A stretch of 64,000 nucleotides of DNA, taken from a candidate division FCPU426 bacterium (lineage in GTDB: Bacteria; Oederibacteriota; PGYV01; Palsa-1178). A program made the position numbers and the translations under genes. Under the pieces are notes generated by a model. The model was not told the origin of the DNA. It saw only the letters and a list, made by a program, of their open reading frames with translations, and did no database searches. Positions 13,819 through 51,290 of this stretch are shown in pieces. The stretch lies in assembly GCA_963840035.1 (NCBI GenBank), contig CAWIXE010000002.1, forward strand, positions 578,236-642,235. The letters are read 5' to 3'. Numbering within the stretch: the first letter of the stretch is position 1; every line of letters starts with the position of its first letter.

Positions 13819-14061
13819 GTGGGAAAACTGGAACCAAAGCTGAAAATTGTAAGCCGGCTGCACATATTGCGCGCTGAAAAACGGCTTTCCCAGGATGACC
13901 TGGCTAAGGCAATAGATGTTACACGGGGGACTATAGTCGCGATCGAAGGCGGGGATTATAACCCGTCGCTTGAGCTGGCTTTCAGGCTTGCGAGATATTT
14001 CAATACGGATATACACTCGATATTTCAAATAGAGGAGGGGAATGATGCAAAAAATAAATAA
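13819..14061 (+). CDS. XRE-family (Cro/C1-type) HTH transcriptional regulator
   Basis: LSQDDLAKAIDVTRGTIVAIEGGDYNPSLELAFRLARYF. GTG start with AGGAGG 7 nt upstream. A sigma70-like promoter (TTGACT..17 nt..TATAAA) lies at about 13736. Confidence 0.85.
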   Translation: MGKLEPKLKIVSRLHILRAEKRLSQDDLAKAIDVTRGTIVAIEGGDYNPSLELAFRLARYFNTDIHSIFQIEEGNDAKNK

Positions 14062-14656: not shown

Positions 14657-14699
14657 CGGCCTGATTGCCGTTCTATAATAAATTTTTAAGGAGGATGTT

Positions 14700-16332: not shown

Positions 16333-16348
16333 ATATGAGGACGGTAAA

Positions 16349-23830: not shown

Positions 23831-24955
23831 ATGGAAAAGAGTTTTCATTCAATTTGTAAGTGGACTTTTAACGCGGGCAAAGGCGGTTTCGTGCCAAACA
23901 ATATGAGGCCGGAATGGTCGGGAGATAACCTGGATACCGTGGGCATCATAAAAATCATAAAAGACAAAGTGGCGCCAAGGCTTCCGAATAACGTCGTGCT
24001 TGGTTTTGAGGCGCATTACGACGGCGAATATAATGAAGACAACGCGGCTGATATAGCGGACGCGCTTGTTGACGCGGGAATGTACCTGGCTATGGCTACT
24101 CCGGGAGCTCACAGCAGGTTCGCGTACGGCGGGATATCGTCGCTTGACGCAAATGAAAGGGCGCGCGCGTGTGAGTTCGGGGAAAGATCGTTAAAACTGG
24201 TGTACGGCCCGCTTAAAAAAGCATGGCACCCGAAAAAGCAGCCTACGTTTGTCCTGTGGAACGGTTCTTTTGGATACGATGTAGCCACAGTGGGCATAGG
24301 GCGCATGTATAAGTATTTAAAGGAAAATGTGGCGGGACTCTGCAAGCTTGAAAAGAAATTAGGCGGCAAGATGATGCTGGCAATAGAGCCAAAACCAAAC
24401 GAAGGCCATCCTGCTATGCTTCTGCCAACAGTGGCAAGCGCGATAATTTTCTGGAAAAAACTCGGAGAGGAATTCGGAATTGACGTAAAGCGCACCGGGG
24501 TTAACAAGGAATTCGGCCACTCGGAAATGATAGGCCTGGACCATGTTTATGATACAGTGGAGGAAATAGACAATTCCATGCTTGTACACATGCACTTAAA
24601 CAGCCAGGGTTATAACGACGGCATAATCATGGGCGGACCGGGAAAGTATGACATAGACAACGGAGCCAGGATTAACGGCATGAACATAGCCATTGCCGGG
24701 CTCATACAGGACGCCGGATATTCAAGGTGGAAGGGCCATGACATGCAGCCGCGCGCGTATGATAATGAGGAGCAGGCCATAGACAGGGTTGTGCGCTCAG
24801 TCCTTTCGTGGGAAGCGTGCGAAACAGCAGCCAGGAATATTGATTACAAGAATCTTAATAAAGCGCTCAATAACCGCGAAACAGCAAAAGCTGAGGATGT
24901 CATGAGGCACGCGGTAGTCGACGCGCAGAAAATATTTGACCGGCTTTACAAGTAG
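23831..24955 (+). CDS. xylA: Xylose isomerase (short, class I/actinobacterial-type)
   Basis: KWTFNAGKGGF resembles the N-terminus of class I xylose isomerases. The metal-site motif IEPKPNEGHPAMLLPTV matches the class I XI consensus FAIEPKPNEPRGDILLPTV. HSEMIGLD is also present. Confidence 0.85.
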   Translation: MEKSFHSICKWTFNAGKGGFVPNNMRPEWSGDNLDTVGIIKIIKDKVAPRLPNNVVLGFEAHYDGEYNEDNAADIADALVDAGMYLAMATPGAHSRFAYGGISSLDANERARACEFGERSLKLVYGPLKKAWHPKKQPTFVLWNGSFGYDVATVGIGRMYKYLKENVAGLCKLEKKLGGKMMLAIEPKPNEGHPAMLLPTVASAIIFWKKLGEEFGIDVKRTGVNKEFGHSEMIGLDHVYDTVEEIDNSMLVHMHLNSQGYNDGIIMGGPGKYDIDNGARINGMNIAIAGLIQDAGYSRWKGHDMQPRAYDNEEQAIDRVVRSVLSWEACETAARNIDYKNLNKALNNRETAKAEDVMRHAVVDAQKIFDRLYK

Positions 24956-24962
24956 GCCCCGG

Positions 24963-26414
24963 ATGATAAAAAAACTGGCGGTATTGGCTCTACTTGCCGG
25001 GGCGTTGGCCATGATTTTAGGATGCGCCGTCCCAATAACCATTAAAGAGGTAAAACCTGTGACTGATGGGCCTGTAAAACCGCTTGAAGAATTACAGAGG
25101 GATTTCGCGGAACTGCGTTATGGTATGTTCATTCATTTTGGCATACTGACATACACGGGTTCCTGGTCGCAGAAAAACCTTGATATCAGCAAATTCAACC
25201 CGGAAAACCTTGACTGCGGCCAGTGGGCTTACGCGGCAAAAGCAGGGGGCATGAAGTTCGGCGTGCTCACAACAAAACATCACGACGGTTTCGCGCTATG
25301 GCCTACACAAACAAGCGATTTTTCCGTTAAGGCAATCCCGTGGCGCGGCGGCAAGGGCGACGTGGTCAGGGAGTTTGTGGACGCGTTCAGGGCAAAAGGC
25401 CTCCAGCCGGGATTATATTACTCGGTATGGGATAATACAAAGGGAATCGGCAACAAGCCGGTTACCGAAGCTGACATAGAGTACGTCGAAGAACAGCTTA
25501 AAGAACTGCTGACAAATTACGGGCCAATTCCGTTGCTCGTCCTTGACGGTTATTCCTGGAAAATGGGGCACAAAGCAATACCATACGACAGGCTCAGGGC
25601 GTTCATCAAGTCGCTGCAGCCAAACTGCCTCGTAATAGACCACACGCATCTGCAGTGCCTGTATGACAATGACCTTGCTGTGTTTGAAGAGCCCAAAGGG
25701 GTCTTCGCGCCAAAAGGTAACAAAGTGGCATCGGCGCAGGACCAAAAAATCATCGGCGGCAATGACTGGTTCTGGGGGCCGTCGACCGAAATGGAAAATC
25801 CGATGAGTTTAAAGGACCTGGTTGAAGGCCACCTGATACCGCTTGAGGAAAGATACGCGGTATTCATATTAAACTGCCCGCCGAACAGGCAAGGGCTGAT
25901 GGATGGCAAGATAGTTACAAGGCTTGCTGAAGCAGGCGCAAAATGGAAACCCAATATGAAAAGAAAACCGCTGCCAGCGCAGGGCCCGCAGAACGAACTG
26001 CCTGTTACGCCCGAGAGCGCCGCGGCCACAAGCGGGAACGCGTCATTTGCCATAGACGCTATAAACGATTCGTATTTCTATTCAGTCTGGGAATCAGACA
26101 AACAGCTCCCGCAGTCGATTACTTTAGACCTGGGAAAATCATATCCTGACATAGGGGTGCTGTGTTATGTGCCAAAGTACATAACAGTGGAGAAACCCAC
26201 TGACGAAGGTGCCATAACTTCCTATGAAATATCGGTAAGCGTTGACAATGCTGATTTCAAGAAGGTGGCTGCAGGCAAATGGGCCGCTGATTCAGCCATG
26301 AAAACCGTTGCTTTTGGGGCAGTGCAGGCAAGGTATGTAAGGCTTACCGCTGTTTCCGCCAAAGATGGTTTCGCCGCGGCTACGGAAATCAGCGTCGGCA
26401 GGGCAATGAAATAG
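24963..26414 (+). CDS. GH29 alpha-L-fucosidase lipoprotein with a C-terminal F5/8-type C (discoidin/CBM32-like) domain
   Basis: Lipobox ILGCAV. GH29 core YGMFIHFGILTY...KHHDGFALWPT...YYSVWD. The C-terminal ~100 aa is proposed as a discoidin-type CBM. Confidence 0.85.
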   Translation: MIKKLAVLALLAGALAMILGCAVPITIKEVKPVTDGPVKPLEELQRDFAELRYGMFIHFGILTYTGSWSQKNLDISKFNPENLDCGQWAYAAKAGGMKFGVLTTKHHDGFALWPTQTSDFSVKAIPWRGGKGDVVREFVDAFRAKGLQPGLYYSVWDNTKGIGNKPVTEADIEYVEEQLKELLTNYGPIPLLVLDGYSWKMGHKAIPYDRLRAFIKSLQPNCLVIDHTHLQCLYDNDLAVFEEPKGVFAPKGNKVASAQDQKIIGGNDWFWGPSTEMENPMSLKDLVEGHLIPLEERYAVFILNCPPNRQGLMDGKIVTRLAEAGAKWKPNMKRKPLPAQGPQNELPVTPESAAATSGNASFAIDAINDSYFYSVWESDKQLPQSITLDLGKSYPDIGVLCYVPKYITVEKPTDEGAITSYEISVSVDNADFKKVAAGKWAADSAMKTVAFGAVQARYVRLTAVSAKDGFAAATEISVGRAMK

Positions 26415-26448: not shown

Positions 26449-26477
26449 CGGTTGACTTAAAAGGCTTTTTCAGTATA
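26449..26477 (+). promoter_or_regulatory. Near-consensus sigma70 promoter
   Basis: TTGACT, a 17-nt spacer, then TATAAT. Confidence 0.6.
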
Positions 26478-26560
26478 ATTAGTGTAATTAGGGTTCACGT
26501 TTACCCTGAATGATGAAACGTATAAAAGAAAGATATTCTATTAAATTTAAGGAGGATAAG

Positions 26561-27199: not shown

Positions 27200-27208
27200 A
27201 ATGTGATA

Positions 27209-27245
27209 AAGCGGGGAGCTGAAAAGCTCCCCGCTTTAATTTTTG
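27209..27245 (+). terminator. Rho-independent terminator
   Basis: aagcggggagc-tgaaa-gctccccgctt followed by taattttt. Confidence 0.8.
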
Positions 27246-27253
27246 GAGGGATA

Positions 27254-28555
27254 ATGAAAAAAATAACCGCAATCATAATACCGGCCTTAATTACTGCCCT
27301 GCTTTTATCCGCGTGCGCGAAGAAACAGGAAAAGATACGCGTCATGCACTGGGGCGATGTCATAGAAATGGGCAACGTCAATACCATAATAAAAGATATT
27401 AAAAAAACAAAAGGCATCGATGTTATCCAGGAACGCGCGCCGGCCGGCAACTCTTATATGGAAAAAATACTCACACAGGCGGCCGCGGGCATGGCGCCTG
27501 ATATTGTTTTTGTTGAAGTAAGCAATTTTAAGGACCTCTACGACAGGGGGCTGCTGCTTGACCTCGGGCCTTTCATGGAAAAAGACGCCGCTAAAGAGCT
27601 TGACCTGAAGGCGTATTACCCGGAAATAGTGGACAGGTTCACCATTGATAATAAATTATACGTAATACCCAGGGACATAGCGCCGATATGCGTTATATAT
27701 TACAACAAGAAAGTATTTAATGACGCGGGAATCAAATATCCCAAAGACAACTGGAACTGGGCTGAATTCCTCGATACCGCAACAAAACTGGTAAAAAAGG
27801 AAGGCAATAAAATTACACGCTATGGCTTCCTTGATGAGTGGACCATATGGGACGCCTGGGTATATTCTAACGGAGGCGCGCTGGTGGACAATGTAAAAAA
27901 ACCCACGAAGTGCGTCCTTGATTCGCCTGAGGCAATAGAGGGCATGCAGTTCAGGGCAGACCTTTCATATAAGTATAAGGTCGCGCCTGAACCCTCGGTA
28001 GTGGCGCAGTCATCGCAGGGATGGTACGGGACAGCGGGCATGTTCGTAAACGGACAGGTCGGCATGTTTTATACCGGCTACTGGAAATCAAGCTTTTTCA
28101 GACAGCAGCAGGACCTGGACTGGGATATTGTGATGTTCCCGAAAGGTCCAAAAGGCAAAAGGGCCTTCCCGACAGGCGGTTCAGGATATGCCATAACAAG
28201 CCAGTGCAAGAATCCCGCGGCAGCCTGGGAAGTATTGAAAAAACTCGCGGGCGAAGAGGGGCAGAAGGTGCTCGCAAGCCAGGGCGGCCTGCAGCCCGCG
28301 ATAATCAAGCTGGCTGAATCAAAGCAGTTTATGGATGATAATAAACCGGTAAATAAGAAGATAATGCTTGAGGCTGTAAAATACATAGTATTCAGCCCGC
28401 TTTTAAAGACGTGGGACGAGATAAACATAGCCCAGCTCGGGCCTGTCCTTGACGACGTATGGAGCGGCAAATCAACGGCTGAAAAGGCGATGAAAAAAAT
28501 AGTGCCGAAGATAAATAAGGAATTTTTTCCCGTTAAAAAAGAAGAGAAAAAATAA
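27254..28555 (+). CDS. ABC transporter sugar-binding lipoprotein (family 1 extracellular solute-binding protein); no permease genes are adjacent
   Basis: Lipobox LLSACAKK. A length of about 430 aa and the MalE/SBP_bac_1 fold pattern (KYPKDNWNWAEF, WGEP-like aromatic patches). Confidence 0.75.
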   Translation: MKKITAIIIPALITALLLSACAKKQEKIRVMHWGDVIEMGNVNTIIKDIKKTKGIDVIQERAPAGNSYMEKILTQAAAGMAPDIVFVEVSNFKDLYDRGLLLDLGPFMEKDAAKELDLKAYYPEIVDRFTIDNKLYVIPRDIAPICVIYYNKKVFNDAGIKYPKDNWNWAEFLDTATKLVKKEGNKITRYGFLDEWTIWDAWVYSNGGALVDNVKKPTKCVLDSPEAIEGMQFRADLSYKYKVAPEPSVVAQSSQGWYGTAGMFVNGQVGMFYTGYWKSSFFRQQQDLDWDIVMFPKGPKGKRAFPTGGSGYAITSQCKNPAAAWEVLKKLAGEEGQKVLASQGGLQPAIIKLAESKQFMDDNKPVNKKIMLEAVKYIVFSPLLKTWDEINIAQLGPVLDDVWSGKSTAEKAMKKIVPKINKEFFPVKKEEKK

Positions 28556-28596: not shown

Positions 28597-30924
28597 ATGA
28601 CAAATACGGTTCTCTTTGCGCGTGCTGCCGCAGGCGGTATGAAAAGAACGGCAGGCAAAATGTTTATGGCGTTGTTCTTATTTGCGGTTTTTGCTGTCGG
28701 CGTTTTTGCGGCTCCTGCTGCGGGAAATAATGAAGAGCGTATTTTCGTATCCCAGAAGGACGCGCTGTATAATGATCTTTCAACACTTGCCGGGGCAGGG
28801 CTTATTAAGTCAAAAGACGCTGATTATTTTCTGTATAATCCCATAACAAAAAAACAGGCCGCCGGGTTTATAATTGAGGCGCGTTATTACCTGGGGGTAA
28901 CACGTCCGGCTGAAGACGCCGTTGATGAAAAGAAATTTACGAAAGTCATCAATTCCTGCGCTTCCGGATTACAGGAAGAAATAAAATCAGCGCCGGCATT
29001 TGCCGTTGTTGCTGTAAATGAATCTGAAGCGCAAAGCCGGCTTGATGGAGTTGAGGCGGCGATAAGCGACGCTGAAAGCGCCCGTAACGAAACGTTCTTT
29101 AACTCCGGTTCGTCCCTGAAAATCGAGGGCATAATAAGCGCTAAATACACGGACCTTGGAGCTTATGGCGTATGCCCGTTCAACCATTCGGCTTTTACCG
29201 GCACATATATGCAGCTGCTGATCTCAAAAAGCTTTTCAAGCGACCTGTCCTTAAGCATGTACTTAAACCTTGAACCGCGTTACAACGACCCTGTCATAGG
29301 CACAGCATATCCCGATTTTTTTACTCCGTCAAATATTATGGACAATTTCTCCATGAGCTTAAACGCGGGCCCGTGGAAAATAAGCGGCGGGACCATCTGG
29401 GAGGATATTACTTCCTTTATCGCCTCGCAGGGGCCTTCAGACAGGCCCTGGATATTTGAACGCGACCAGCTGGCGGCCGATGAAAAGGCAAAGGACCATT
29501 ACGAGACCATTTTCCGCAATTATTTTCAGTCCCTGGATGACAGGTGGTCAAAACACCCGTGGATGGGGCTCGAAGTATTTAATGACAAACTCTTCGGCAG
29601 GGACCAGCTGAAACTCATGGCCGGAAAGGCCAATAACTTTTATACCAATTATTTATATGAGTTCGGCGCGCGCTATACCAGGCGCCAGGATATACTCTTT
29701 TTTTCCGCGGCTGAATGGTCGGCAAATTTCTATAACACTTCAAACCAGAAAGCTGAAGCGTTTGCCATGCAGGACGCGGACCCGTTTGGACTGATTGCCG
29801 GCGATACCATCGCGGGCGGGGACGTCAAAGCCACGCTGTTTGGCCTTTTTAAAATTTCCGGTGAATTTGAATATTCAAATTATTACGCCAGGTACGTGAC
29901 ATCGACTCCGATGCCTTACACGCAAAAAGGCTCGGCCATGTACGCGAATCTGGTACCGTCATTTTTACCGAAGCAGATTTACCTCGGGGCCAGGTATACC
30001 AGGATAGACCCTGATTATGTGGCGCCGGCATCCGGCGTATCCGATACGAGCGTCAAATCAATTGACGCGGCAGACCCGGCAAAAGTCAAACTGGACAGCC
30101 TGACCACGATATCCGACCCCACAACTCTTGAAAACAATATGAACAAGATTGAAGTATCGGCCCGGCTGAATGTGCCGTACTGCCTTTTAAGGCTTAACTA
30201 TGGAGTGTCCTCGCAGCTTAGGGCGACGGGAAATATGTTCTATTCCAGGAGGTATGTCATAGGGACGTCCATCTGGTGGAACGCGTTTTACTCCAACTAC
30301 GGTTTTCTGGACACCGCCTCAGGCCAGCACGCGGCAATTATAAATTACAATAATAACAGGTATGATTATGACCCGTCTTTGACAACCTACAGGCTCGCTG
30401 AGATAATGGCGGGCGGGAATGGCGGCCTCGCGACAGACGAATGGACATCCTCAAGGGAGTTCATGGTCTCTTCGGACGTCACAAAAGACACGATAAAATA
30501 TAAAACAAACGCGGTCGCCGATTTAAGGGTTGAATTGAGCAGGTTTGTAGGCCTGCGTCAGCCTCTCTTTCTGCACGCTTACGGTGAACTCAACAGCCTT
30601 TCAAACGGGACTGATTACATAGTCAAGTATGACCCGGCGAGGCTTTTTTCCCAGCTTATTTTAACTTCAACAATCGTTTACAACCCCGTGAACAATATCT
30701 GCATCCTCGGATATTTCGGCTCTGAGGCGTGGGCGTCAAAAAGCACGCTGCCGCATGAGATTGACTACCTTGACTGCATGGCCGGTCTCGGCGCTGATTT
30801 TGACATATCGGGCAGGGCCGGCCTTTTTATAAGGGTAAAGAATTTTTTCCATAAGGATAAGTTCATATCCGGCAATAATTTCCACGGATGGCAGATAACA
30901 GGCGAGCTTAAGAGTTTCTTCTAA
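28597..30924 (+). CDS. SLH domain, coiled coil and large beta-barrel outer-membrane protein (OmpM/SlpA-like porin), paralog 1
   Basis: After the signal peptide, ALYNDLSTLAGAGLIKS...NPITKKQAAGFIIEA fits the SLH consensus. A predicted coiled-coil segment follows. Then come about 550 aa of alternating Y/N/S-rich beta-strands, with a C-terminal aromatic residue (GELKSFF). Confidence 0.6.
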   Translation: MTNTVLFARAAAGGMKRTAGKMFMALFLFAVFAVGVFAAPAAGNNEERIFVSQKDALYNDLSTLAGAGLIKSKDADYFLYNPITKKQAAGFIIEARYYLGVTRPAEDAVDEKKFTKVINSCASGLQEEIKSAPAFAVVAVNESEAQSRLDGVEAAISDAESARNETFFNSGSSLKIEGIISAKYTDLGAYGVCPFNHSAFTGTYMQLLISKSFSSDLSLSMYLNLEPRYNDPVIGTAYPDFFTPSNIMDNFSMSLNAGPWKISGGTIWEDITSFIASQGPSDRPWIFERDQLAADEKAKDHYETIFRNYFQSLDDRWSKHPWMGLEVFNDKLFGRDQLKLMAGKANNFYTNYLYEFGARYTRRQDILFFSAAEWSANFYNTSNQKAEAFAMQDADPFGLIAGDTIAGGDVKATLFGLFKISGEFEYSNYYARYVTSTPMPYTQKGSAMYANLVPSFLPKQIYLGARYTRIDPDYVAPASGVSDTSVKSIDAADPAKVKLDSLTTISDPTTLENNMNKIEVSARLNVPYCLLRLNYGVSSQLRATGNMFYSRRYVIGTSIWWNAFYSNYGFLDTASGQHAAIINYNNNRYDYDPSLTTYRLAEIMAGGNGGLATDEWTSSREFMVSSDVTKDTIKYKTNAVADLRVELSRFVGLRQPLFLHAYGELNSLSNGTDYIVKYDPARLFSQLILTSTIVYNPVNNICILGYFGSEAWASKSTLPHEIDYLDCMAGLGADFDISGRAGLFIRVKNFFHKDKFISGNNFHGWQITGELKSFF

Positions 30925-30945
30925 TATATTACGGAGGTAATTAAA

Positions 30946-33054
30946 TTGAAAAGAATAATCATCGTGTTGACGGCGGCTTTGTTGCTGCCGTGTATGCCTG
31001 CCATGGCAGTACCGGCGCCGGATAAAGCGTATCAGGACATTATGACGCTTTCGTCATCAGGCGTTATACCTGAAAAACCGGCAAAGGCGCAGATTACCAG
31101 GGATGAAGCGTTGATTCTGGTTGAATCCGGGGTTAAAAACGTAACAGCGGGTAATTACGGGGCGTCAAAAGCGGAACTTGAAACGCTTTATGGACTTGTA
31201 AAAATGTTTACGACAGACATGATGGAAAAGGGAAAGGACCTGGGGGAGATAGAGGATATCCTGGTCGACCTTAGGATGCGTTCGGAAAGTTCGCGCATGA
31301 AAAATATTGAGGATAAACAGGAAGCCATATCCGGAACCATAGGGCTTAAGATTAACGGCGATGCTTCAGTTAACATGGTGGACCTTCTTTTGACCGGGAA
31401 CGCGTTCCCGCTGGAGAGGGATTACAGGCCCGTCACGCAATACATTGACCTCATATTTTCAGCACATCAGTCGGACAAGCTTTCGGCTGAAGCGGTTTTC
31501 AGGATCGAGAGCCTTTTTGGCAGCTACTGGAGCGCCATGAATATATACGGCGTCAGGAAACTGAATATACACGGAAATTACCCGGTTTCATTTGACGCGG
31601 GAGTATATCAGGCAAAATTAACGCCGCTTACATTATGGGCTGTGGATGATGACAGGCCCTTTGAGGCGGCATTTTTTAAGAATAAGAGGGATATGATAAA
31701 GAAAGAACTGTATCTCGAAGATGAAATGTGGCCGCTGACAGGCTTAAAACTGGCATCGGATTTTAAATTATTCGGTGAAACGCAGTTCAACGCGGCGCTA
31801 ATGGCGGCAAGGATTGCCGTGGCAAACGACACTTCAACGACCTCATATGCCTCATATGTAAACGCCCCGTCATATTCGGCCAGTGCCGGAGCCTTATACA
31901 CATGCCCGCATGACAGGTATATGCTGGCGGGAAGGCTATCGACAGACCTGTCGTTTAAGGACAAAGTAACCTTTGGCCTTAACGCTGTTGAAATAACGGA
32001 TATCAAAGAGACAGGGCTTATTAAAATGTCGCCATCCATGAGCAATCTGGTGGCATCAGCGGACGCTGAGGTCAAGGTGTTTGACTGGCTGAAACTTAAG
32101 GGCGAATATGCCATGTCTGATTACTATGTCACGACGTCACAGTCGGCGCAGGTGTGGAACAACAGGGACAACTGGGATTCCGCGCTGATGGCGGGGCTTG
32201 AGGCGGAAGGATTCGGGCTTAAACTTGACGGCTCGTTCAGGGTCAACGGCGACGTTTTTACCTCGTACGCGGCACAGTCAAGGACATATGACGGGTTTGC
32301 CAACTTCGCATATCTGACGGAAAATAACACATGGAACGTATCAATGGCGCCGCCCGCGTTTTCACTTAATAACGCGGCGTTCCCGCTCACAAAATATAAC
32401 GCGTCTATAAACGGAAGTTACGCCGCAACCGGCAAGAATCTGATGCCGTTTGTTTTTTATGAGAATAACTCCATGCCTTACGGCGGGTCAACGCCTAACA
32501 GGCAGGGTCTTGATGTAAAAATAGGCGGCGATTATTTCGGATCGGCTATAATGCCGTCAGCCCGCTACTCTTACTACCAGGAGCTCGTGTCACACATGCC
32601 GGGCTCACAGGCTACATCGCCCAGGACTTTTCAGGCCGTTGAAGGCGGCATCAAGTCAAAACTTGGCAATATCTCCGCGGGCGCCGGATACAAACTTGAA
32701 ATGACGGAAAACACATCAATAGGAGGCCAGGTGGAACTTACTGCACAGATAATAGACGCTTCCTTTGATTATGGGATAACCCCGAAGTTAGGCGTTCACG
32801 CCGGCTTTAAAGGCAATATATTTGCCGGCAAGGATTGCCCGTATACATATACGTCGGGTTCGGGGATGGCTTTCGGAGTTTTAAAATCCTATGACGCTAC
32901 AATACTTAAGTGGGGGCTTGGAGTGGATTATGAAATATTAAAACAGGCGACTGCCAGGCTTTCATTCGCGCACACTTATTTTACGGATAACCTTGAATCA
33001 TCGAATAATTTTACGGCGCAGGAGATCGATCTGAGCGCTGTCATGACATTCTAA
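30946..33054 (+). CDS. SLH domain, coiled coil and beta-barrel outer-membrane protein (OmpM-like), paralog 2
   Basis: AYQDIMTLSSSGVIPEK...AQITRDEALILVESG is SLH-like. A coiled coil runs ELETLYGLVKMF..IEDKQEAISG. Then a beta-barrel-like region with a C-terminal F (SAVMTF). Confidence 0.65.
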   Translation: MKRIIIVLTAALLLPCMPAMAVPAPDKAYQDIMTLSSSGVIPEKPAKAQITRDEALILVESGVKNVTAGNYGASKAELETLYGLVKMFTTDMMEKGKDLGEIEDILVDLRMRSESSRMKNIEDKQEAISGTIGLKINGDASVNMVDLLLTGNAFPLERDYRPVTQYIDLIFSAHQSDKLSAEAVFRIESLFGSYWSAMNIYGVRKLNIHGNYPVSFDAGVYQAKLTPLTLWAVDDDRPFEAAFFKNKRDMIKKELYLEDEMWPLTGLKLASDFKLFGETQFNAALMAARIAVANDTSTTSYASYVNAPSYSASAGALYTCPHDRYMLAGRLSTDLSFKDKVTFGLNAVEITDIKETGLIKMSPSMSNLVASADAEVKVFDWLKLKGEYAMSDYYVTTSQSAQVWNNRDNWDSALMAGLEAEGFGLKLDGSFRVNGDVFTSYAAQSRTYDGFANFAYLTENNTWNVSMAPPAFSLNNAAFPLTKYNASINGSYAATGKNLMPFVFYENNSMPYGGSTPNRQGLDVKIGGDYFGSAIMPSARYSYYQELVSHMPGSQATSPRTFQAVEGGIKSKLGNISAGAGYKLEMTENTSIGGQVELTAQIIDASFDYGITPKLGVHAGFKGNIFAGKDCPYTYTSGSGMAFGVLKSYDATILKWGLGVDYEILKQATARLSFAHTYFTDNLESSNNFTAQEIDLSAVMTF

Positions 33055-33070: not shown

Positions 33071-35218
33071 ATGACCAAAGACAGATTTTTATTGTTCGCA
33101 TTCGCAATAGCCGTGCTTATAGCCGGCTGCGCAGGGGGTGCTGTAATGGCTGATGGAAGTGCTGGAAGCGGAAAGTATGTGTGGAAAAGCGTTATCGCCG
33201 GCGGCGGCGGATTTATAGACGGGATTATTTACCATCCCGCGGAAAAAGGGCTTGTATATCTGCGAACCGATATGGGCGGGGCTTACAGGTGGGATGACAC
33301 CGCGAAAATTTGGATATGCTTAAATGACATGTTCACAAGGTCTGAGGCTGATAATTACGGCATATTAAGCCTTGCTGTTGACCCGGCAGACGCGAATAAA
33401 GTCTATATGATGACAGGCAAGTACACGCAGGACTGGGCGGGTAAAGGCGTATTTTTAGCCTCAGACGACAGGGGCAAGACATGGAAAAAAACCGGCCTTG
33501 ATTTCAAGGTTGGCGGCAATGAGGATGGAAGGGGCTGCGGAGAAAGGCTCGCGGTTGACCCGAATAAACCATCTGTGCTTTTCATGGGCTCAACAAAGAA
33601 CGGCATGTGGAAATCAACAGACAGCGGCGAAACATGGGAGCAGGTAAGTTCGTTCAAGCCGGTAAACATAAACTTCATAGCTTTTGACCCGGCAAGCGGG
33701 AAAAAGGGCTCGGTTTCAAAAAGAATATTCGCGTCGGCAGCGGATACATCAAAGTCCATATATGTATCCGAGGACGCGGGTAAGTCATGGAAAGCTGTTG
33801 TGGGACAGCCTAAGAAATTAATGGGAATCAGGAATGATGTTGTGAAAGGCTTTTTATATGTAACTTTTTCCGACGGGCCGGGGCCTAACGGCGCGACTAT
33901 GGGCGCGGTATATAAATACGACATAGCGGAAGGGGCATGGACTGACCTTAAACTTCCTGAAGGGCCGGGCGGATTTTCCGGAATATCAGTAAACCCGAAA
34001 GACCCGAAAAACATCATAGTATCATCGCTCGACAGGTGGGGCGGCCCGGATGATGTTTTCCTTACATTTGACGGCGGAAAAACATGGGCACAGAAAATAA
34101 AAGGCGCGAAATGGGATAATTCTTACGCCCCTTATACGGCGAAAAATTTTACTCCGCACTGGATAGCTGACGTTAAGATGGACCCGTTTGACCCCAACAG
34201 CGCCATGTGGGTGACCGGATACGGGCTCTGGGCCACGAATAACCTGAAGGATGAACCCTGCACGTGGTATTTCAATGACAAAATAATAGAACAGACCGTA
34301 CCGCTTGAGATAATAAGCCCTCCGTCCGGAGGCGCGCACTTGGTCTCGGCGCTGGGGGATGTGGACGGGTTCAGGTACGTGGATGATTTTGATAAATCGC
34401 CCGCAGACAGGCATTCGCCTCCGAGCTGGACGACACTTTCCATGGCGTGCGCGTGGAACTCGCCTGATTTTATGGTAAAGACAATAAATAAACCCACGTT
34501 CGGCGCGTATTCCGAAGATAACGGAATTACCTGGAAGAATTTCGCGAAGAAGCCGGAGGGCGCGAAAAGCGGCGGCGGCACAAGGTCGATATGCGTATCA
34601 GCCGACGGAAAATCCATAGTGTGGTATCCGGAAAAAGCCGAACTCTATTTTTCAAAGGATAAAGGCGCTACATGGACCAAATCCAACGGCGGAGTGCCGG
34701 GAATAAGGCCGGTTGCCGATACAGCAAACGCATCAAAGATATACGCGTACGACGGTGCCACCGGCACCATGTGGGTATCAAATGATTACGGCGAGAATTT
34801 CTCAAAAGGTTCCGCTAATTTTGATTTCGTGCAGAAATGGACTGTTGATGACTGCATGGCTGCTGCTGTCCCGGGTAAAGAGGGGCATGTATGGGTTACG
34901 GCAGACACTAAAGGCCTCTTCCGCACAAAGGATTCTGGAAACAGCGCGAATAAGATTGAAGGCGTTGATGAAGCATACAGGCTCGGGTTCGGCAAGGCAG
35001 CGCCGGGTAAGGATTATCCCGCAATATTTATCGTGGGCAAAGTCGGCGGTGTTTACGGTTTCTTCAGGTCGGATGACGAAGGTTCTTCCTGGACACGCAT
35101 AAATGACGACGAGCACCAGTACGGCTGGATACACTGCATCATAGGAGACCCGAGGATTTATGGCAGGTGCTATGTGGCGCTTGAAGGCAGGGGCGTTGCT
35201 TATGGGGATTTACAGTAA
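33071..35218 (+). CDS. BNR/Asp-box repeat tandem beta-propeller glycoside hydrolase, GH74-like (xyloglucanase family), lipoprotein
   Basis: Lipobox LIAGCAGG, then WKSVIAGGGGFIDGIIYHP..RTDMGGAYRWDD. At least 8 S-x-D-x-G-x-T-W Asp-boxes (SDDRGKTW, STDSGETW, SEDAGKSW, TFDGGKTW, SEDNGITW, SKDKGATW...). Confidence 0.7.
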   Translation: MTKDRFLLFAFAIAVLIAGCAGGAVMADGSAGSGKYVWKSVIAGGGGFIDGIIYHPAEKGLVYLRTDMGGAYRWDDTAKIWICLNDMFTRSEADNYGILSLAVDPADANKVYMMTGKYTQDWAGKGVFLASDDRGKTWKKTGLDFKVGGNEDGRGCGERLAVDPNKPSVLFMGSTKNGMWKSTDSGETWEQVSSFKPVNINFIAFDPASGKKGSVSKRIFASAADTSKSIYVSEDAGKSWKAVVGQPKKLMGIRNDVVKGFLYVTFSDGPGPNGATMGAVYKYDIAEGAWTDLKLPEGPGGFSGISVNPKDPKNIIVSSLDRWGGPDDVFLTFDGGKTWAQKIKGAKWDNSYAPYTAKNFTPHWIADVKMDPFDPNSAMWVTGYGLWATNNLKDEPCTWYFNDKIIEQTVPLEIISPPSGGAHLVSALGDVDGFRYVDDFDKSPADRHSPPSWTTLSMACAWNSPDFMVKTINKPTFGAYSEDNGITWKNFAKKPEGAKSGGGTRSICVSADGKSIVWYPEKAELYFSKDKGATWTKSNGGVPGIRPVADTANASKIYAYDGATGTMWVSNDYGENFSKGSANFDFVQKWTVDDCMAAAVPGKEGHVWVTADTKGLFRTKDSGNSANKIEGVDEAYRLGFGKAAPGKDYPAIFIVGKVGGVYGFFRSDDEGSSWTRINDDEHQYGWIHCIIGDPRIYGRCYVALEGRGVAYGDLQ

Positions 35219-35982: not shown

Positions 35983-36123
35983 TTTAAGAATACAATGAAA
36001 TAACACGTCTTAATATCGGTGTAAGCGATTCCGGAAACATCGCGAAGGCCGGGGTTTCACCGCATAAACAGGCACGGCAGCATAGCTGTCCCGGAAAGGG
36101 ACATGAATATTACGGAGGAAACG

Positions 36124-38859
36124 ATGAAATATACGGTAAAAAGCAGCGGAATTGAAGTAACACTGGGAAAGAATGTATTAAGCGTGGAGCCATATTCGCC
36201 CGGGATTATCAGGGTGAAGTGCGGGCCAAAGACGGCTAAAAAAAGGGAAAGCCTTTCCGTGGTTTTAAAGCCGGAAAACTTCAGGTGGTCGATAACCGAG
36301 GAAAAAAACTGCCTGTGGGTGCTGGCCGGCGGTCTTAAGGTGAAAGTTGAGGGCGCGGGAACCGTGAGGTTTTATGATGCGGCCGGAAAACTCCTGCTCT
36401 CGGAAAAATCATCCGCTAAAAAACTCAAACCGTCGACGGTGTCCGGCGAAAAATGCATTAACTCCTCGCAGGGGTTCCTGCGTTCGGCTGATGAAGCCAT
36501 TTACGGGCTGGGACAGTATGAGGAAGATTTTATGAACTATAAAAACTGCGAAGTGCTCATGATTCAGGCAAACAGGGTGATAGTCAATCCTGTGATAACT
36601 TCCACAAAAGGCTGGGCTATGCTGTGGGACAATTATTCAGAGACCGTGTTTAAGGCGGGGGAAACGGACTTCTCGTTTGACTCTGAAGTTTCCGACGGCA
36701 TTGATTATTATTTCATGGCGGGCGGCTCCATAGACGGCGCCATAAAGCAGTACAGGAAATTAACCGGGGCCGCGCCCATGTTCCCGAAATGGATATTCGG
36801 TTTCTGGCAGTCAAAGGAACGTTATACTGACCGCGACGAGCTCATTTACATAATTAAGGAATGCAGGAAAAGGAAGATACCCTTAGACAGCATAGTACAG
36901 GACTGGCGCTACTGGGGTGAGAACGAGGTTTTCTCGGGTATGGAGTGGGAAAAGTACCGTTTTCCGGACCCAAAGAAGATGATGAAGGAAATACACGACC
37001 TGCACGCGCACCTGATGTGCTCGTTCTGGCCTGCGCTCGGCCCGGATTCAAAACCGCATAAGGAACTCGCGGCAAAAGGTCATATGTTCAAGGGCCCGCA
37101 CTGGACAGGGTCAAAACTTTACGACGCTTTTTCACCGGAGGCCAGGAGCATATACTGGAAACATGTAAAAAAATGCCTTTATGACAACGGCGTGGACGCA
37201 TACTGGATGGACGGCACTGAGGCTGAATTCTTGTCGGCAGAGGACAGGTACGTACTCGCCGAAACATACAAGGCCAATGGCAAAAATGAACTTGGAACTA
37301 TGGCAAGGTATTTAAACGCCTTTTCGCTGATGACCACAAAAGGCGTTTATGAGAATCACCGCGCAGTTTCCAATAATAAAAAGAGGGTATTCACTCTGAC
37401 CCGGTCCTCTTTCGCCGGACAGCAGCGCAACGCTGCTGCTGCGTGGTCAGGGGATACATTCGCCAGTTGGGAAACATTAAAAGGCCAGGTATCGGCCGGC
37501 ATTAATTTCTCCGCGTCAGGCCTGCCTTACTGGACCAGCGATATAGGCGCTTTCTACCCGTTCTTTAAATATAAGGAGCCGTTAAAGGACGCGGCATACA
37601 AAGAATTATATCTGCGCTGGTTCCAGTTCGTGGCATTTACGCCGATTTTGCGCGTGCACGGAACAGCCGCGCCAAGGGAAGTGTGGAGATTCGGCAACCC
37701 GGGAAGCGTGGAATATGATACGCAGATGAAGTTCATAGAGCTTAGGTATAAGCTTTTGCCTTACATATATTCAACGGCCTGGAAAGTAACGAGCCAGGGA
37801 TACTCGTTCATCCGTCCGCTGGCATCGGATTTTGCCGGGGATAAAGCCGCGGTAAATTGCGGTACGCAGTACATGTTCGGGGAGTCTTTGATGGCGTGCC
37901 CTGTGACCAAGGAACTTTACAGGGAAACAACGCACAAAGGCGATTACATTTATTATAAGAACCTCTTTACACCGGACGGCAAGGAACACGGGCTGATATA
38001 CGAGATATACAACGGAGTTGATTTCAAGGACCTGCGATGCACCAGGAAACTTGATACTTCCTCCATGGGATGGGCAGGAAATATTCCGGCGGACATTAAA
38101 CTTGAATATTCGCAGAGATGGACAGGAAAGATACTCACAAACGAAGCCGGCAAATATGATTTTACAGCCATTACAGACGGTAGCGTCAGAATCTGGCTTA
38201 ACGGGAAGCTTGTCGTGGACGCGTGGGATAACAGGGAAGAAAAACGTTTTGATTTCTCCGCGAAACTCAAAGAAAACACCAAGTACTCCATAAAGCTCGA
38301 GCACCAGCAGTTCCGGATGAAGCAGGCAATAATGAGGCTGAACTGGCATACCCCGGCAATGAAAAAAGATGAGGCAAAGAAATCAATAAATGTTTACATG
38401 CCTGCGGACAAAAAATGGGTGGATTTCTGGACAGGCAAAGCAACTGTATCGGGTAAGGTGTTGGCCTTAAAGCCGGCGCTTGATACCATGCCGCTATACG
38501 TGGCTGCGGGTTCCATAATCCCCGTAGGACCGGCTATGCAGTATGTCACTGAAAAACCGGCGGACCCGCTCGAACTGCGCGTGTATCCCGGCGCTGACGC
38601 CTCTTTTGAGCTGTATGAGGATGAAGGAGACGGTTATGACTATGAAAAAGGCGCATTTTCAATCATATCCATAAAGTGGTTTGACAGGTTTAACACTCTT
38701 GTTATCGGGAAAAGGCAGGGAAAATTCCCGGGCATGATGAATGAGCGCACCTTTAAGGTGGCCCTGGTTAAACCCGGACGCGGCACAGGCATAAAGGAAA
38801 CACCAAAAGCTGATGCCGTAGTAAAATATGACGGGACGGAAAAGACGGTAAAAATTTAG
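36124..38859 (+). CDS. GH31 alpha-xylosidase/alpha-glucosidase with a C-terminal PA14-like domain
   Basis: GH31 core WQSKERY..LDSIVQDWRYW, the nucleophile region DAYWMDGTEAEF and RVHG. A PA14-like insert TGKILTNEAGKYDFTAITDGSVRIWLNGKLVVDAWDN. The ORF-track start is moved to the ATG that follows GGAGGA. Confidence 0.85.
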   Translation: MKYTVKSSGIEVTLGKNVLSVEPYSPGIIRVKCGPKTAKKRESLSVVLKPENFRWSITEEKNCLWVLAGGLKVKVEGAGTVRFYDAAGKLLLSEKSSAKKLKPSTVSGEKCINSSQGFLRSADEAIYGLGQYEEDFMNYKNCEVLMIQANRVIVNPVITSTKGWAMLWDNYSETVFKAGETDFSFDSEVSDGIDYYFMAGGSIDGAIKQYRKLTGAAPMFPKWIFGFWQSKERYTDRDELIYIIKECRKRKIPLDSIVQDWRYWGENEVFSGMEWEKYRFPDPKKMMKEIHDLHAHLMCSFWPALGPDSKPHKELAAKGHMFKGPHWTGSKLYDAFSPEARSIYWKHVKKCLYDNGVDAYWMDGTEAEFLSAEDRYVLAETYKANGKNELGTMARYLNAFSLMTTKGVYENHRAVSNNKKRVFTLTRSSFAGQQRNAAAAWSGDTFASWETLKGQVSAGINFSASGLPYWTSDIGAFYPFFKYKEPLKDAAYKELYLRWFQFVAFTPILRVHGTAAPREVWRFGNPGSVEYDTQMKFIELRYKLLPYIYSTAWKVTSQGYSFIRPLASDFAGDKAAVNCGTQYMFGESLMACPVTKELYRETTHKGDYIYYKNLFTPDGKEHGLIYEIYNGVDFKDLRCTRKLDTSSMGWAGNIPADIKLEYSQRWTGKILTNEAGKYDFTAITDGSVRIWLNGKLVVDAWDNREEKRFDFSAKLKENTKYSIKLEHQQFRMKQAIMRLNWHTPAMKKDEAKKSINVYMPADKKWVDFWTGKATVSGKVLALKPALDTMPLYVAAGSIIPVGPAMQYVTEKPADPLELRVYPGADASFELYEDEGDGYDYEKGAFSIISIKWFDRFNTLVIGKRQGKFPGMMNERTFKVALVKPGRGTGIKETPKADAVVKYDGTEKTVKI

Positions 38860-38866
38860 GAGGCAT

Positions 38867-41785: not shown

Positions 41786-41796
41786 AAGGATGTAAA

Positions 41797-43949
41797 ATGA
41801 TATCGTATAACAAAAATAAGGGCATGTTTTACCTTGATACCCGTGATTCTTCTTATGTTTTCGGGGTAAACAGCGGGAAGCAGATATATAACGCCTATTA
41901 CGGCAGGAAACTCAGCCCGAAAGAGTCGGCTGCCGTCTCCGAGCCTGTGTTCAAGGAAATTGGTTACCATATGGTCGACAATATGAAGTCGAATTACAGC
42001 CCTGAGATAAACATTTATGACGGGTATAATGTCTTTGAAAACACTTTAAAAGCCTCGCTTTCAAACGGGACAAAGTCGCTTGACTGCGCGTACTCCGGCC
42101 ACACAATAAAGGATAACGTCCTGAAAGTTACGTTAAAAGACAAACTTTATAACATAAGCATAGTGCTGTCGTATAAAGTGCATTTTGAATATAACCTCAT
42201 AGAAAAATCGATTGTCATAAATAACAATGAAAAGAAGTTAAACGTAACGTTGGAAACATTTAATTCCGGGGAACTTATGCTGCCGGCCGGCAGATATAAC
42301 CTCGGGACTTTTCACGGCGGCTGGATAAAGGAAATGTCGCTTACATTTGAGGAAATCACCCACGGCAGGAAAGTCATAGAAAGCCGGACAGGACACTCTT
42401 CGCACATACATAACCCGTCGTTTTTTATTACAAAAGACGCAAAGGTATCAGAGGACAGCGGGGAATACTATTACGGCCAGCTTTTATGGGGCGGCGACTT
42501 CAGGTTTACTTTTGAAAAAAGGTTCTATGACACGGTTTCTTTTACCGGGGGCATAAACTCTTTTGACGGAAATGCCACGCTAAAGCCCGGAAAGGTGTTT
42601 GAAACACCCGCCCTGATACTGGGTTTTTCAGACAAGGGCGCCGGTAAAATGTCACGCCAGCTCCATGATTTTTACAGGGATAAGATAATGCTTAAGGAAA
42701 AACTGGATGACCATAAACGGGTCCTTGTAAACAGCTGGGAAGCTTTTTATTTCTCCATAAATGAGGATAAGCTGCTTAAACTGGCTGATAAGGCAAAGGA
42801 AATCGGCGCGGAAATACTCGTTGTCGACGACGGCTGGTTCAGGAGGAAGGATAATGACGGCAATTCCCTGGGTGACTGGTACCCGGTTAAGGAAAAGTTC
42901 CCAAATGGGATGGCTGAGTTCGGCAGGAAAGTAAAAGCAAAAGGGCTTAAGTTCGGCATATGGCTTGAGCCTGAAGCCATGAATACTGACAGCGGCCTTT
43001 ACAGAAAGCATCAGGACTGGTGCTATCATTTTAAAGGCAGGCCTGACAAGGAAATGAGGCACACGGTCACGCTGAACATTACAAAAAAGGAAGTAAAAGA
43101 ATATTTAAAAAAGATGATACACAGGGTAATAACCGAATATAAACCTGATTACGTAAAATGGGACATGAACAGGTATGTCTCTGAGACAGGGGCCATTGAC
43201 GGGACGCAGGCGCAGTTGGAGCACATGAAAGCGGCGTATGAACTTATGGATTACTTAAAAAGCCTGAACCCGGCCATCATACTTGAAGGATGCGCCGGCG
43301 GCGGGGGCAGGATGTCCGGAGGCATGTTTTCGCACGTGGACCAGATGTGGGCCAGCGATAACAACGACCCGTTCTGCAGGCAGATCATACAGTACGGCAC
43401 ATCGCTTTTTTATCCCGCGCAGGTCATGTGCTGCCATGTGGCTGACAGCCCATATGGATTGACAGGCAGGGCTTCAACGCCGCTTTTCAGGGTACGCACG
43501 GCCATGGCAGGAAACCTCGGGACAGAGGCAAACCTGCTTGAGTGGAAAGATGAGGAAATAGCCGTATTAAAAAGGGAAGTAGCGTTATATAAATCAGTAA
43601 GGGATATCATTTACACGGGTGATCTGTTCAGGATAGAAGCCCGTATGAATCAATGCGGGTGAGTTTTATGCATGTTTCAAAGGATAAATCATGCGCTGTA
43701 TTGTTTTCATATTTCCCGGGCAAGGAACTGTATAAAAGCGTAAACGCTATAAGCGCGGAAAAAGAAGCCATGCCAAAGCCCGGAAACTTGAAATTAAAGG
43801 GGCTGCTGCCAGGCGCGGTATATGAACTTGAAATTGACGGTAAAAAAAGCGCGGCAAAAGGCAGCGTGCTCATGAAGACGGGAATAAAACTTAACTTAAA
43901 AAAGACGCAGGACAGCGCCATAATCAGGATCAACAGGAGGATTAAATGA
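41797..43949 (+). pseudogene. GH36 alpha-galactosidase interrupted by a frameshift near 43650; the C-terminal beta-sandwich is encoded in a different frame (43653-43949)
   Basis: GH36 motifs LVVDDGWF, KFGIWLEPE, DYVKWDMNR and GCAGGGGRMSGG. The downstream 98-aa ORF (SKDKSCAVLFSYF...) matches the GH36 C-terminal domain. The frame changes from 1 to 0. Confidence 0.65.
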
Positions 43950-45901: not shown

Positions 45902-45905
45902 AAAC

Positions 45906-47009: not shown

Positions 47010-47146
47010 CATGTTCGCTAAGCGGCAAAAAAACAACGGGTGAAAATTTGTTCTGTTTTCCACTGTCACGTGAAAAACAGAGCCTTTTGCATCTTTTTGT
47101 ATTTAGAAACGCTATATTTGAGCAGTACATAGATCCTCGCGCAAAT

Positions 47147-47228
47147 ATGCCTGCCGGGGGGGTCAAATTTTCTTATGGCCTGCGCTACTGCGCAATCCAT
47201 AAGAAAATATGCCCCCCCCGGCAGGCAT
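47147..47228. repeat. Long hairpin with G8/C8 tracts (32-nt arms, about 19-nt loop)
   Basis: atgcctgccgggggggtcaaattttcttatgg ... ccataagaaaatatgccccccccggcaggcat. Confidence 0.8.
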
Positions 47229-47287
47229 AAATGGAAAAGCTCCGGGGCAGAACTAACCCGTTAATTTGTAGGGCCTCTTATTTCGTG

Positions 47288-47313
47288 TCGTAGGGGCGAT
47301 TCACGAATCGCCC
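47288..47313. repeat. REP-like hairpin unit sharing its 5' prefix with the 20992/21100 doublet
   Basis: tcgtaggggcgattcacgaatcgccc, with a 9-bp stem; compare tcgtaggggcgagccggtggctcgccc. Confidence 0.7.
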
Positions 47314-47371
47314 GCACTGTCACGGTACTTCGTTTTGGATGGAATACGTAATACGACTACAAGGAGGTAAA

Positions 47372-49343: not shown

Positions 49344-49371
49344 TAGCATATGTGGATAATGGAGGTAATTA

Positions 49372-51285: not shown

Positions 51286-51290
51286 CGCGT

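Follow-up and report, generated by a model that had tools for sequence, protein, structure and literature searches.

By what route could the products of xyloglucan degradation cross the outer membrane of a bacterium whose xyloglucan operon encodes no TonB-dependent receptor? The question is raised by a locus in a 64,000-nucleotide stretch of DNA, hereafter the window, from a candidate division FCPU426 bacterium (assembly GCA_963840035.1, contig CAWIXE010000002.1, positions 578,236 to 642,235 of the forward strand), in which two adjacent genes, here called A and B, lie inside a cluster of genes for carbohydrate-active enzymes (CAZymes). Within this CAZyme locus neither a TonB-dependent receptor nor a plug domain was found. 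An original prediction, made from the sequence without database searches, had described A and B as tandem, divergent porin paralogs of the OmpM kind and had proposed them as dedicated oligosaccharide channels. Our best reading is that A and B are not OmpM paralogs, and that they are a wall-tethered form of a two-barrel module which is widespread and unannotated in polysaccharide utilization loci (PULs) outside the SusCD type. In the specific form to which we assign a probability of roughly 60%, A and B are an obligate pair of beta-barrels of about 22 strands that provides the outer-membrane passage of a TonB-independent, PUL-like xyloglucan operon, and stalks bearing surface-layer homology (SLH) domains fix this pair to the cell wall.

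Domain architecture of A and B

Protein searches returned full-length homologs for both A and B at E = 0 to 1e-115, and the two are therefore real genes rather than chance open reading frames (ORFs). Each lies on the plus strand at the coordinates originally given (Table 1), with the signal peptide and terminal phenylalanine foreseen for it. Gene B begins with a TTG codon 21 bp past the stop codon of A; two start candidates exist for A, namely M1 at 28597, with a GAGGGAAGGA Shine-Dalgarno-like sequence upstream, and M15 at 28639. Both signal peptides are of the signal peptidase I type, ending ...GVFA before AP in A and ...PAMA before VP in B. A lipoprotein assignment of B through Cys16 (LLLPC) was rejected, as a proline at position -1 is unfit for a lipobox and the cysteine is not conserved. 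At the other end, ELKSFF is invariant in the A family and B-family proteins close with ...x-F; terminal phenylalanines of this sort serve as signals for barrel insertion.

Scans of A and B against Pfam and NCBIfam gave no SLH match (PF00395), even at E <= 1, and assigned no family, the sole match being a sub-threshold one to OMP_b-brl at the C-terminus of B. Family profiles reach further. The family-A profile matches Veillonella parvula OmpM1 (8BYS, E 2.4e-7) over the SLH domain, the stalk and the first strands, and the family-B profile has as its top match 8BZ2, a stalk fragment of OmpM1, whose E of 0.02 is marginal. For a 47-position profile made from the N-terminal segments of both families, signal peptides removed, the top matches are SLH-domain structures only (8BZ2, 5.8e-7; 8BYS, 8.5e-6; Sap of Bacillus anthracis, 3PYW, 1.8e-4; SbsB, 4AQ1, 3.3e-3). 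These profiles indicate that A and B each carry one divergent SLH domain, and the SLH segment of the original prediction is upheld by family profile, not by PF00395 search. The SLH pattern spans about 45 residues and reads W/Y-x-x-hydrophobic…L…G-hydrophobic-hydrophobic…TRxE. Its TRxE motif is near-invariant in the B family; the A family has T-x-x-E/D/Q, with the arginine gone. As far as sequence can tell, B has thus kept, and A has lost the arginine of, a motif that is associated with attachment to pyruvylated secondary cell wall polymer, which would be a candidate wall ligand.

The coiled coil that was proposed to follow the SLH segment is clear in B and partial in A. In the AlphaFold2 model of B, a long helix (residues 99-131) runs directly into strand 1, and 65% of the a/d heptad positions in the B family are core hydrophobic, against 18% elsewhere (z 3.2 relative to shuffles). 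Heptads in A are confined to the membrane-proximal part of the stalk, residues 140-168 (z 2.3). Barrel segments, used as a control, give z <= 0.

Predicted barrels

In the AlphaFold2 models of A (pLDDT 61) and B (pLDDT 72.5, pTM 0.65), beta-strands extend from the end of the stalk through the C-terminal phenylalanine. Parsing the DSSP strings of these models with both ends placed in the periplasm yields 22 strands for each protein, with all long loops on one side and turns of 2-7 residues on the other; on predicted structure, both barrels would therefore be about 22-stranded. Foldseek matches of the two models are exclusively outer-membrane beta-barrels, in keeping with the barrel expected for both. 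The best folds for B are 22-26-strand barrels: MtrB (TM 0.37) and the TonB-dependent transporters (TBDTs) FrpB, PirA and ZnuD (TM 0.39-0.40), followed by ushers. SlpA/SDBC of Deinococcus radiodurans recurs among the matches of A (7ZGX, 8AGD, 8AE1) and of B (8AGD, 7ZGX), at a TM of ~0.2. Conservation is concentrated in particular loops: in B, the helix-containing loop L3 at residues 224-261 and loop L7 at residues 435-518 account for about one third of the invariant residues, and the best-conserved stretch of A is the equivalent L3, residues ~271-320 (…SQGPSDRP.IF.RD…FRNYF..D.RWS.H…).

Neither A nor B matches Plug (PF07715) or TonB_dep_Rec in Pfam at E <= 1, the N-terminus being occupied by SLH domain and stalk, nor does either match OprB (PF04966) in Pfam. 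The sequence match of A to the OmpM barrel covers the first strands only, a second stretch having an i-Evalue of 2.5. The OmpM/SlpA/Omp-alpha architecture originally assigned to the pair consequently holds for the order of parts (signal peptide, single SLH domain, helical stalk, large barrel, terminal phenylalanine) and fails for the barrel, which is not an OmpM-like 16-strand porin and, with ~22 predicted strands, belongs to a separate superfamily.

A conserved pair of distinct families

A word-indexed search of 5.8 billion proteins returned only 12 relatives of A and 19 of B; the few that bear a name are called 'hypothetical protein' and derive from metagenome-assembled genomes (MAGs) labelled Candidatus Goldiibacteriota or Spirochaetia. 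The MAGs that supplied the related loci carry the labels Ca. Goldiibacteriota, candidate division FCPU426, 'uncultured Spirochaetia' or 'bacterium'. FCPU426 is the same phylum as Goldbacteria (PMC7031533), and the neighbour genes in the window are 60-78% identical to those of these MAGs. Wherever both genes are readable, in 22 of 22 related loci and in the window, A is the gene immediately before B and shares its strand, and most gaps between the two measure 16-25 bp.

A and B are themselves distantly related (24% identity, BLASTP E 3e-5; hhalign probability 95.8%, E 6.9e-9). A recent tandem duplication was rejected as their origin, given only 24% identity and separate orthologs of each in other phyla. 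An exhaustive hidden Markov model search with the B profile retrieved 503 cluster representatives at E <= 1e-3; the 10 of these that were scanned matched no Pfam family and bore no name more informative than 'hypothetical protein'. Most members of the superfamily are ~575 aa long, match over the barrel only, lack an SLH domain and come from Cytophagaceae, Cytophagales and Flavobacteriales. In two Cytophagaceae genomes (L030 and L031), a 715-aa protein without Pfam domains directly precedes one of 575/582 aa. Compared by hhalign with wider A and B profiles, A aligns with the 715-aa proteins (98.9%, E 1.9e-17, 582 columns) and B with the 575/582-aa proteins (100%, E 2.4e-41, 485 columns); likewise, in a Chitinispirillia MAG (L029), A aligns with a 906-aa protein (97.6%, E 4.3e-12, 252 columns) and B with one of 664 aa (99.2%, E 6.1e-20, 554 columns). 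The hhalign cross-comparisons of A with B-type and of B with A-type proteins, as well as an unrelated control, were null.

On profile evidence, A and B are two distinct orthogroups that form an ancient pair present in three phyla, and their description as tandem divergent paralogs understates this, the order A then B being kept throughout. So constant an adjacency suggests that A and B work as an obligate unit of two components, not as channels used in place of each other. Lineages differ in the N-terminal module, with SLH domain and stalk in Goldbacteria-type genomes, a short helical segment in Chitinispirillia and no module in Cytophagaceae; hence, the conserved unit is the two-barrel pair.

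Some individual members deserve mention. In the Chitinispirillia locus (7149-15234), both partners are without SLH and have alike short helical motifs directly after the signal peptide (…ERVDSLSGTVDDIEDRV… and …EGRVDGLQAQIDRA…), matching mini-stalks that hint at a hetero-coiled-coil; the gene after this pair encodes a 1060-aa CBM30 + CBM11 protein. Two further full-length superfamily members, P0048 (764 aa) and P0053/P0189 (859/870 aa), recorded on one 2.88-Mb contig, have a more canonical-looking SLH segment (DWSxxAL..L...G.L), a hint that barrels of this superfamily carry SLH domains in yet another lineage.

Substrate-specific locus types

Two kinds of locus surround the pair. The xyloglucan-like type has the order GH29 - SASA - A - B - small protein - sugar-binding lipoprotein of the substrate-binding protein (SBP) kind - GH74 (1-2 copies) - small protein - GH2 or GH31, and the cellulose-like type reads GH8/GH9 - A' - B' - CBM9 - CBM11-like - p295 - p221. 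One pair of each type is carried by 6 MAGs and apparently also by the genome of the window: P0028 is a B' protein recorded on a contig equal in length (1,707,679 bp) to that of the window, and its upstream neighbour belongs to the A family (hhalign E 5e-102), with a GH9 cellulase beside the pair. A and B are thus not the only copies of their kind in what is apparently the same genome. The SBP adjoins the pair in all xyloglucan-type loci, homologs of the 229-aa lipoprotein of the window adjoin it in L007-L009 and L011, the GH29 of the window is 77-78% identical to its counterparts in related loci, and the number of small lipoprotein genes with carbohydrate-binding modules (CBMs) downstream differs between loci. 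Dedicated oligosaccharide channels, as originally proposed, would fit this strictly conserved CAZyme synteny; uptake itself is what we infer.

Two loci depart from these types. In L010 (CAWJRG010000010.1, 7561-14500), a third locus type, a GH9-like gene lies upstream of A-B, and downstream the SBP is present only as a piece covering query residues 18-112, with GH62 arabinofuranosidase homologs beyond it; this may be an arabinoxylan-type or a decayed locus. L017 (DYJU01000040.1), from a MAG that bears the label Candidatus Methylomirabilis sp., has the cellulose-type A'/B'/CBM9 locus in full, and it is probably a mis-binned contig, since this label is out of keeping with all other hosts.

A probable barrel-only counterpart in Cytophaga hutchinsonii

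Published work on C. hutchinsonii, whose cellulose strategy its papers call "unique but poorly understood", describes a chu_1276-chu_1280 cluster as an 'atypical PUL' (PMC12016534). Here, chu_1276 and chu_1277 are adjacent genes for outer-membrane proteins, both required for cellulose use; CHU_1276 is a predicted barrel that retrieves TBDT hits, and downstream lie an SGBP-B-like (surface glycan-binding protein) CBM protein and an endoglucanase (PMC12016534). CHU_1276-1279 have masses of 85.3/65.5/41.5/42.4 kDa and no Pfam domains (PMC6247017 supplement), close to the 81.9/65.0/39.6/38.3 kDa of the homologous cluster in L031. Loss of CHU_1276 or CHU_1277 leaves less cell-associated beta-glucosidase activity (PMC5553014), and the authors suggest that the proteins of the cluster stabilise one another in a larger complex (PMC5553014, PMC12016534). 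To judge by the titles of the primary papers cited in PMC12016534, CHU_1276 acts in glucose uptake and CHU_1277 in cello-oligosaccharide degradation.

The resemblance is one of layout: two adjacent, co-oriented genes for outer-membrane barrels without Pfam domains, the larger first, are followed by small CBM-like proteins and a glycoside hydrolase, in an arrangement that appears TonB-independent. The small CBM-like proteins are lipoproteins in the window and in L031, and CHU_1279 is located in the outer membrane. With clear A and B orthologs in L030 and L031, and sizes that match CHU_1276-1279, the pair of the L030/L031 type is quite probably equivalent to CHU_1276/CHU_1277. Two differences separate it from the pair of the window, in that the Cytophagaceae proteins consist of the barrel only, with neither SLH domain nor stalk, and that A and B sit in a xyloglucan-type locus with an SBP lipoprotein. 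The earlier picture of a SusC/SusD analog in a non-Bacteroidetes diderm overlooks this homologous barrel-only pair in Bacteroidota (Cytophagaceae), which is probably chu_1276/chu_1277.

In L030 and L031, the barrel-only pair is immediately downstream of divergently oriented glnK (P-II) and amtB ammonium-transporter genes, and it is followed by 2-3 small proteins (at least 3 with lipoboxes) and then by a GH3 beta-glucosidase. P0159 (65.452 kDa, on a 42.8-kb contig) was considered as CHU_1277 itself (65.456 kDa) and set aside, the mass match being a probable coincidence.

Relation to known outer-membrane systems

OmpM of diderm Firmicutes tethers the outer membrane and also serves as a general porin, in the form of homotrimers of 16-strand barrels, and the VpOmpM1 structures (8BYS, 8BYM, 8BYT, 8BZ2) comprise SLH domain, triple coiled-coil stalk and 16-strand barrel (PMC10628300). 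Tether-porins of the OmpM type bind polyaminated peptidoglycan or pyruvylated secondary cell wall polymer. A and B share with it the signal peptide, the one SLH domain, the helical stalk and the C-terminal barrel, with a significant profile match over SLH and stalk, and this likeness makes a dual tether-and-channel role for A and B plausible. They differ from it in their predicted ~22-strand barrel of another superfamily and in being two distinct partners specific to substrate loci; moreover, their host phylum is absent from the OmpM survey text.

The SusC/SusD systems of Bacteroidota PULs resemble the A/B loci in that each substrate-specific locus joins a gene for a large barrel, of a predicted ~22 strands in A and B, with genes for glycoside hydrolases and for lipoproteins that bind glycans at the surface, and TBDTs are among the best fold matches of the models. 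In contrast to SusC/SusD, A and B lack a plug domain, a TonB box and a SusD homolog; SLH domain and stalk stand in the plug's place, and the partner of each barrel is a second barrel. SlpA/SDBC of D. radiodurans likewise combines SLH domain, coiled coil and a very large barrel, whereas it is the homotrimeric product of a single gene with a role in envelope architecture and without CAZyme context. The SlpA barrel has 30 strands and is much larger than those of A and B. Cyanobacterial SLH-OprB proteins, for which a sugar-related function has been proposed, also fuse an SLH module to a non-OmpM barrel; A and B differ from them in the lack of a PF04966 match, in their larger barrel, in their pairing and in their placement in CAZyme loci. 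Proteins of the A/B type are not mentioned in the Goldbacteria genome paper (PMC7031533) or in a 2026 review of glycoside transporters, and a literature search for SLH-porins in PULs found nothing.

Proposed mechanism and alternative readings

In the mechanism that we propose, the GH74 endo-xyloglucanase, the two small CBM-like proteins and the GH29 fucosidase, all of them lipoproteins, would bind the polymer and cleave it on the cell surface or close to it. The resulting oligosaccharides would cross the outer membrane through the A and B barrels without TonB energy, with the conserved loops L3 and L7 narrowing or gating the pores, and would meet the orphan SBP lipoprotein and exo-glycosidases in the periplasm. 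Each barrel would have acquired its N-terminal single SLH domain and helical stalk in the Goldbacteria-type lineage, as in OmpM and SlpA. Since both barrels carry this module, the A/B complex would be fixed non-covalently to the cell wall and contribute to outer-membrane tethering.

Several points weigh against this mechanism. Transport by any member examined is something that we infer, and what links the pair to CHU_1276/1277 is an agreement in taxon, gene order and sizes and a common lack of Pfam domains rather than the sequences of these proteins. A plugless 22-strand barrel would be an unusually wide passive pore, and the AlphaFold2 models are of moderate confidence (pLDDT 61 and 72.5), least so in the conserved loops L3, L7 and L8. 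The SBP could simply serve a distant inner-membrane ATP-binding cassette (ABC) transporter. As for the tether, a single-sequence Pfam search does not recognise the SLH domains of A and B, and the heptads of the A stalk are interrupted, which makes a coiled coil shared by A and B no more than a possibility. The SLH-to-barrel spacers of the two proteins do covary (r = 0.65), but this is driven by two clades, with a near-constant 81-89 aa in B and a variable 82-104 aa in A, so that the covariation in stalk length is weak and confounded by clade.

Alternatively, though we consider it unlikely, A and B could form a surface-assembly or display platform that exports, sheathes or docks the lipoproteins of the locus (GH74, the CBM-like proteins, possibly the SBP), sugar entering elsewhere; MtrB, which sheathes MtrA and holds MtrC, or a conduit of the usher or Slam type would be the model. 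All five proteins encoded around the pair (GH29, both CBM-like proteins, SBP and GH74) carry lipoboxes, A and B themselves do not, and the endo-xyloglucanase at least must reach the surface to meet its polymer. The varying count of small CBM lipoprotein genes downstream would also suit a platform. MtrB is the best fold match of B and pilus ushers rank high, but fold matches among large barrels mostly reflect barrel size, here at a TM of only 0.37-0.40, and the loci have neither a periplasmic chaperone nor a secretion partner in common. Similarly, the lowered beta-glucosidase of CHU_1276 and CHU_1277 mutants and the suggested mutual stabilisation would be in line with a platform, whereas the titles cited in PMC12016534 tie the two proteins to glucose uptake and cello-oligosaccharide degradation. 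A docking role would, in addition, be compatible with import.

The remaining two alternatives fit the context poorly. That A and B are a housekeeping outer-membrane tether and general porin, the OmpM equivalent of this lineage with an incidental placement among CAZymes, has in our estimate only a small chance of being correct. Such a role would match the layout of one SLH domain, stalk and barrel seen in OmpM and SlpA (PMC10628300), and OmpM paralogs can be numerous per genome. However, every locus examined has the pair among CAZyme genes, with distinct copies in a genome for the xyloglucan and the cellulose type; the barrel is predicted to have ~22 rather than 16 strands, and homology to the OmpM barrel is undetectable past the first strands. 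Pairing and CAZyme context also persist in relatives entirely without SLH, so the conserved role of the barrel is independent of tethering. That A and B act chiefly in envelope architecture, as superstructure or S-layer-like proteins after the manner of Deinococcus SlpA/SDBC, which appears among the fold matches of both models and has the same order of SLH, coiled coil and large barrel, is highly improbable in view of a TM to SlpA of ~0.2, the much larger SlpA barrel, and the pairing, multiple copies and CAZyme context that SlpA leaves unexplained.

Beyond the wall-fixed passage that we favour for this operon, a broader and more doubtful extension can be put forward tentatively. A and B might be a hetero-oligomeric, TonB-independent double-barrel glycan translocon, which would add a general class of machine for polysaccharide uptake to the small specific porins and the SusCD-type TBDT complexes and would be ancient enough for Bacteroidota, Fibrobacterota and Goldbacteria to have it in common. 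It could then be the missing entry route for cellulose and xyloglucan products in Cytophaga-type degraders without cellulosomes or free cellulases, and the SLH-stalks captured in Goldbacteria would have made it one substrate-induced machine for import and tethering.

Significance

The pair bears on the question of how cellulose breakdown products enter C. hutchinsonii and similar bacteria, which have neither cellulosomes nor free cellulases nor SusC/D. Two unannotated barrel families, one with 503 cluster representatives, now have sequence definitions; they travel as a pair inside CAZyme loci of three phyla and diversify by substrate (xyloglucan versus cellulose), and the idea of a TonB-independent two-barrel glycan importer thereby becomes directly testable. 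The SLH-stalk fusion in Goldbacteria-type genomes extends the OmpM principle of tether plus channel to a different barrel. It may also extend it to a phylum outside Terrabacteria, the group to which OmpM-type tethers had seemed confined, which bears on models of how outer-membrane tethers evolved. As a practical matter, the A/B pair is usable as an annotation marker for non-SusCD PULs in uncultured plant-biomass degraders.

Genomic context of the pair

The genes of the CAZyme locus are all on the plus strand and tightly spaced (Table 1), and a PAS histidine kinase follows the GH43 gene. As had been predicted, the pair stands between a sugar-binding lipoprotein and a GH74-like enzyme, here an SBP_bac_1 protein upstream and a true GH74 downstream. 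Judged by family assignment, GH29, GH74 and the downstream CAZyme block between them provide for taking apart both the side chains and the backbone of fucogalactoxyloglucan and hemicellulose. The SBP resembles oligosaccharide-binding SBPs of ABC importers in the Protein Data Bank (PDB), and no ABC permease or ATPase gene is present in the 64-kb window. The hairpin at 27207-27238 could be an intra-operon terminator or attenuator that raises the product level of the first gene.

Table 1. Features of the A/B locus, in window coordinates
Feature	Position	Strand	Remarks
GH29 alpha-L-fucosidase + F5/8-type-C domain	24936..26414	+	Pfam; lipoprotein-like N-terminus; first CAZyme of locus
Sigma-70-like promoter, best match	26452..26479	+	TTGACT-16-TATAAT, 11/12; consensus match only; upstream of first lipoprotein gene
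Small lipoprotein, 229 aa	26510..27199	+	Lipobox FSVGC; weak CBM11/CIA30-like similarity; candidate surface glycan-binding protein
Strong hairpin + T-run	27207..27238	+	14 bp stem, 8 G-C pairs; between small lipoprotein gene and likely SBP start
SBP_bac_1 sugar-binding lipoprotein	27203..28555	+	Lipobox LLSAC; Pfam E 4e-37; likely true start ATG 27254
Gene A	28597..30924	+	775 aa; signal peptide ~1-39, divergent SLH ~50-98, interrupted helical stalk ~99-170, predicted ~22-strand beta-barrel ~171-775, C-terminal ELKSFF
SLH domain of A	28744..28890	+	Profile matches to VpOmpM1 SLH and stalk
Barrel domain of A	29107..30921	+	Homologous over 582 columns to barrel-only 715-aa Cytophagaceae proteins
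Gene B	30946..33054	+	702 aa; signal peptide 1-21, SLH ~22-68, heptad-repeat stalk ~69-131, predicted ~22-strand beta-barrel 132-702, C-terminal Phe
SLH domain of B	31009..31149	+	N-terminal family profile
Barrel domain of B	31339..33051	+	Homologous to barrel-only 575-582-aa Cytophagaceae proteins, E 2.4e-41
GH74 xyloglucanase lipoprotein	33071..35218	+	Lipobox LIAGC; starts 16 bp past B; PDB 6P2M E 7e-224, 2CN2 xyloglucan hydrolase E 5e-138
Second small CBM-like lipoprotein, 199 aa	35325..35924	+	Lipobox VFAGC; kept after GH74 in L004, L007-L009
Downstream CAZyme block	36103..52796	+	GH31+PA14, GH2, GH36, SASA esterase, GH62, F5/8C protein, CE4-GH5, GH43

The only TonB-dependent receptor in the window lies outside this locus and is split in two frames, 16319-17920 and 17952-18596, as the frameshift originally noted had implied. 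It has CarboxypepD_reg, Plug and barrel domains and lies beside ExbB (14700) and TonB (15721); its second ORF has no Pfam match and ends ...YLGVEAEW, with the aromatic C-terminus expected of such a receptor. Either a true pseudogene or an assembly frameshift would account for the split.

Two further ORFs of the CAZyme region stand out. One, of 374 aa and without a Pfam match (23831-24955), has an FGGY sugar kinase on one side and the GH29 fucosidase on the other. Another of 541 aa (47009-49343) has an F5/8-type-C domain from residue 2 and follows a 700-bp gap without any ORF of at least 150 aa; its start may be mis-called or the gene disrupted.

Elsewhere in the window, positions 10-4223 hold a NuoF-like/GltD-like flavoprotein (794 aa, cut by the window start) and, after it, the large subunit of an [FeFe]-hydrogenase, whose N-terminus carries a 2Fe-2S/4Fe-4S module; the arrangement looks like an electron-bifurcating hydrogenase operon and is consistent with an anaerobic fermenter. 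Positions 4001-8500 form a low-GC island (35-39% versus ~47-50% elsewhere) that contains an IS200-like Y1 transposase (5647-6630) and an IS30-like HTH_38 + rve integrase (7345-8421), and another HTH_38 protein is encoded on the minus strand at 60100-61191.

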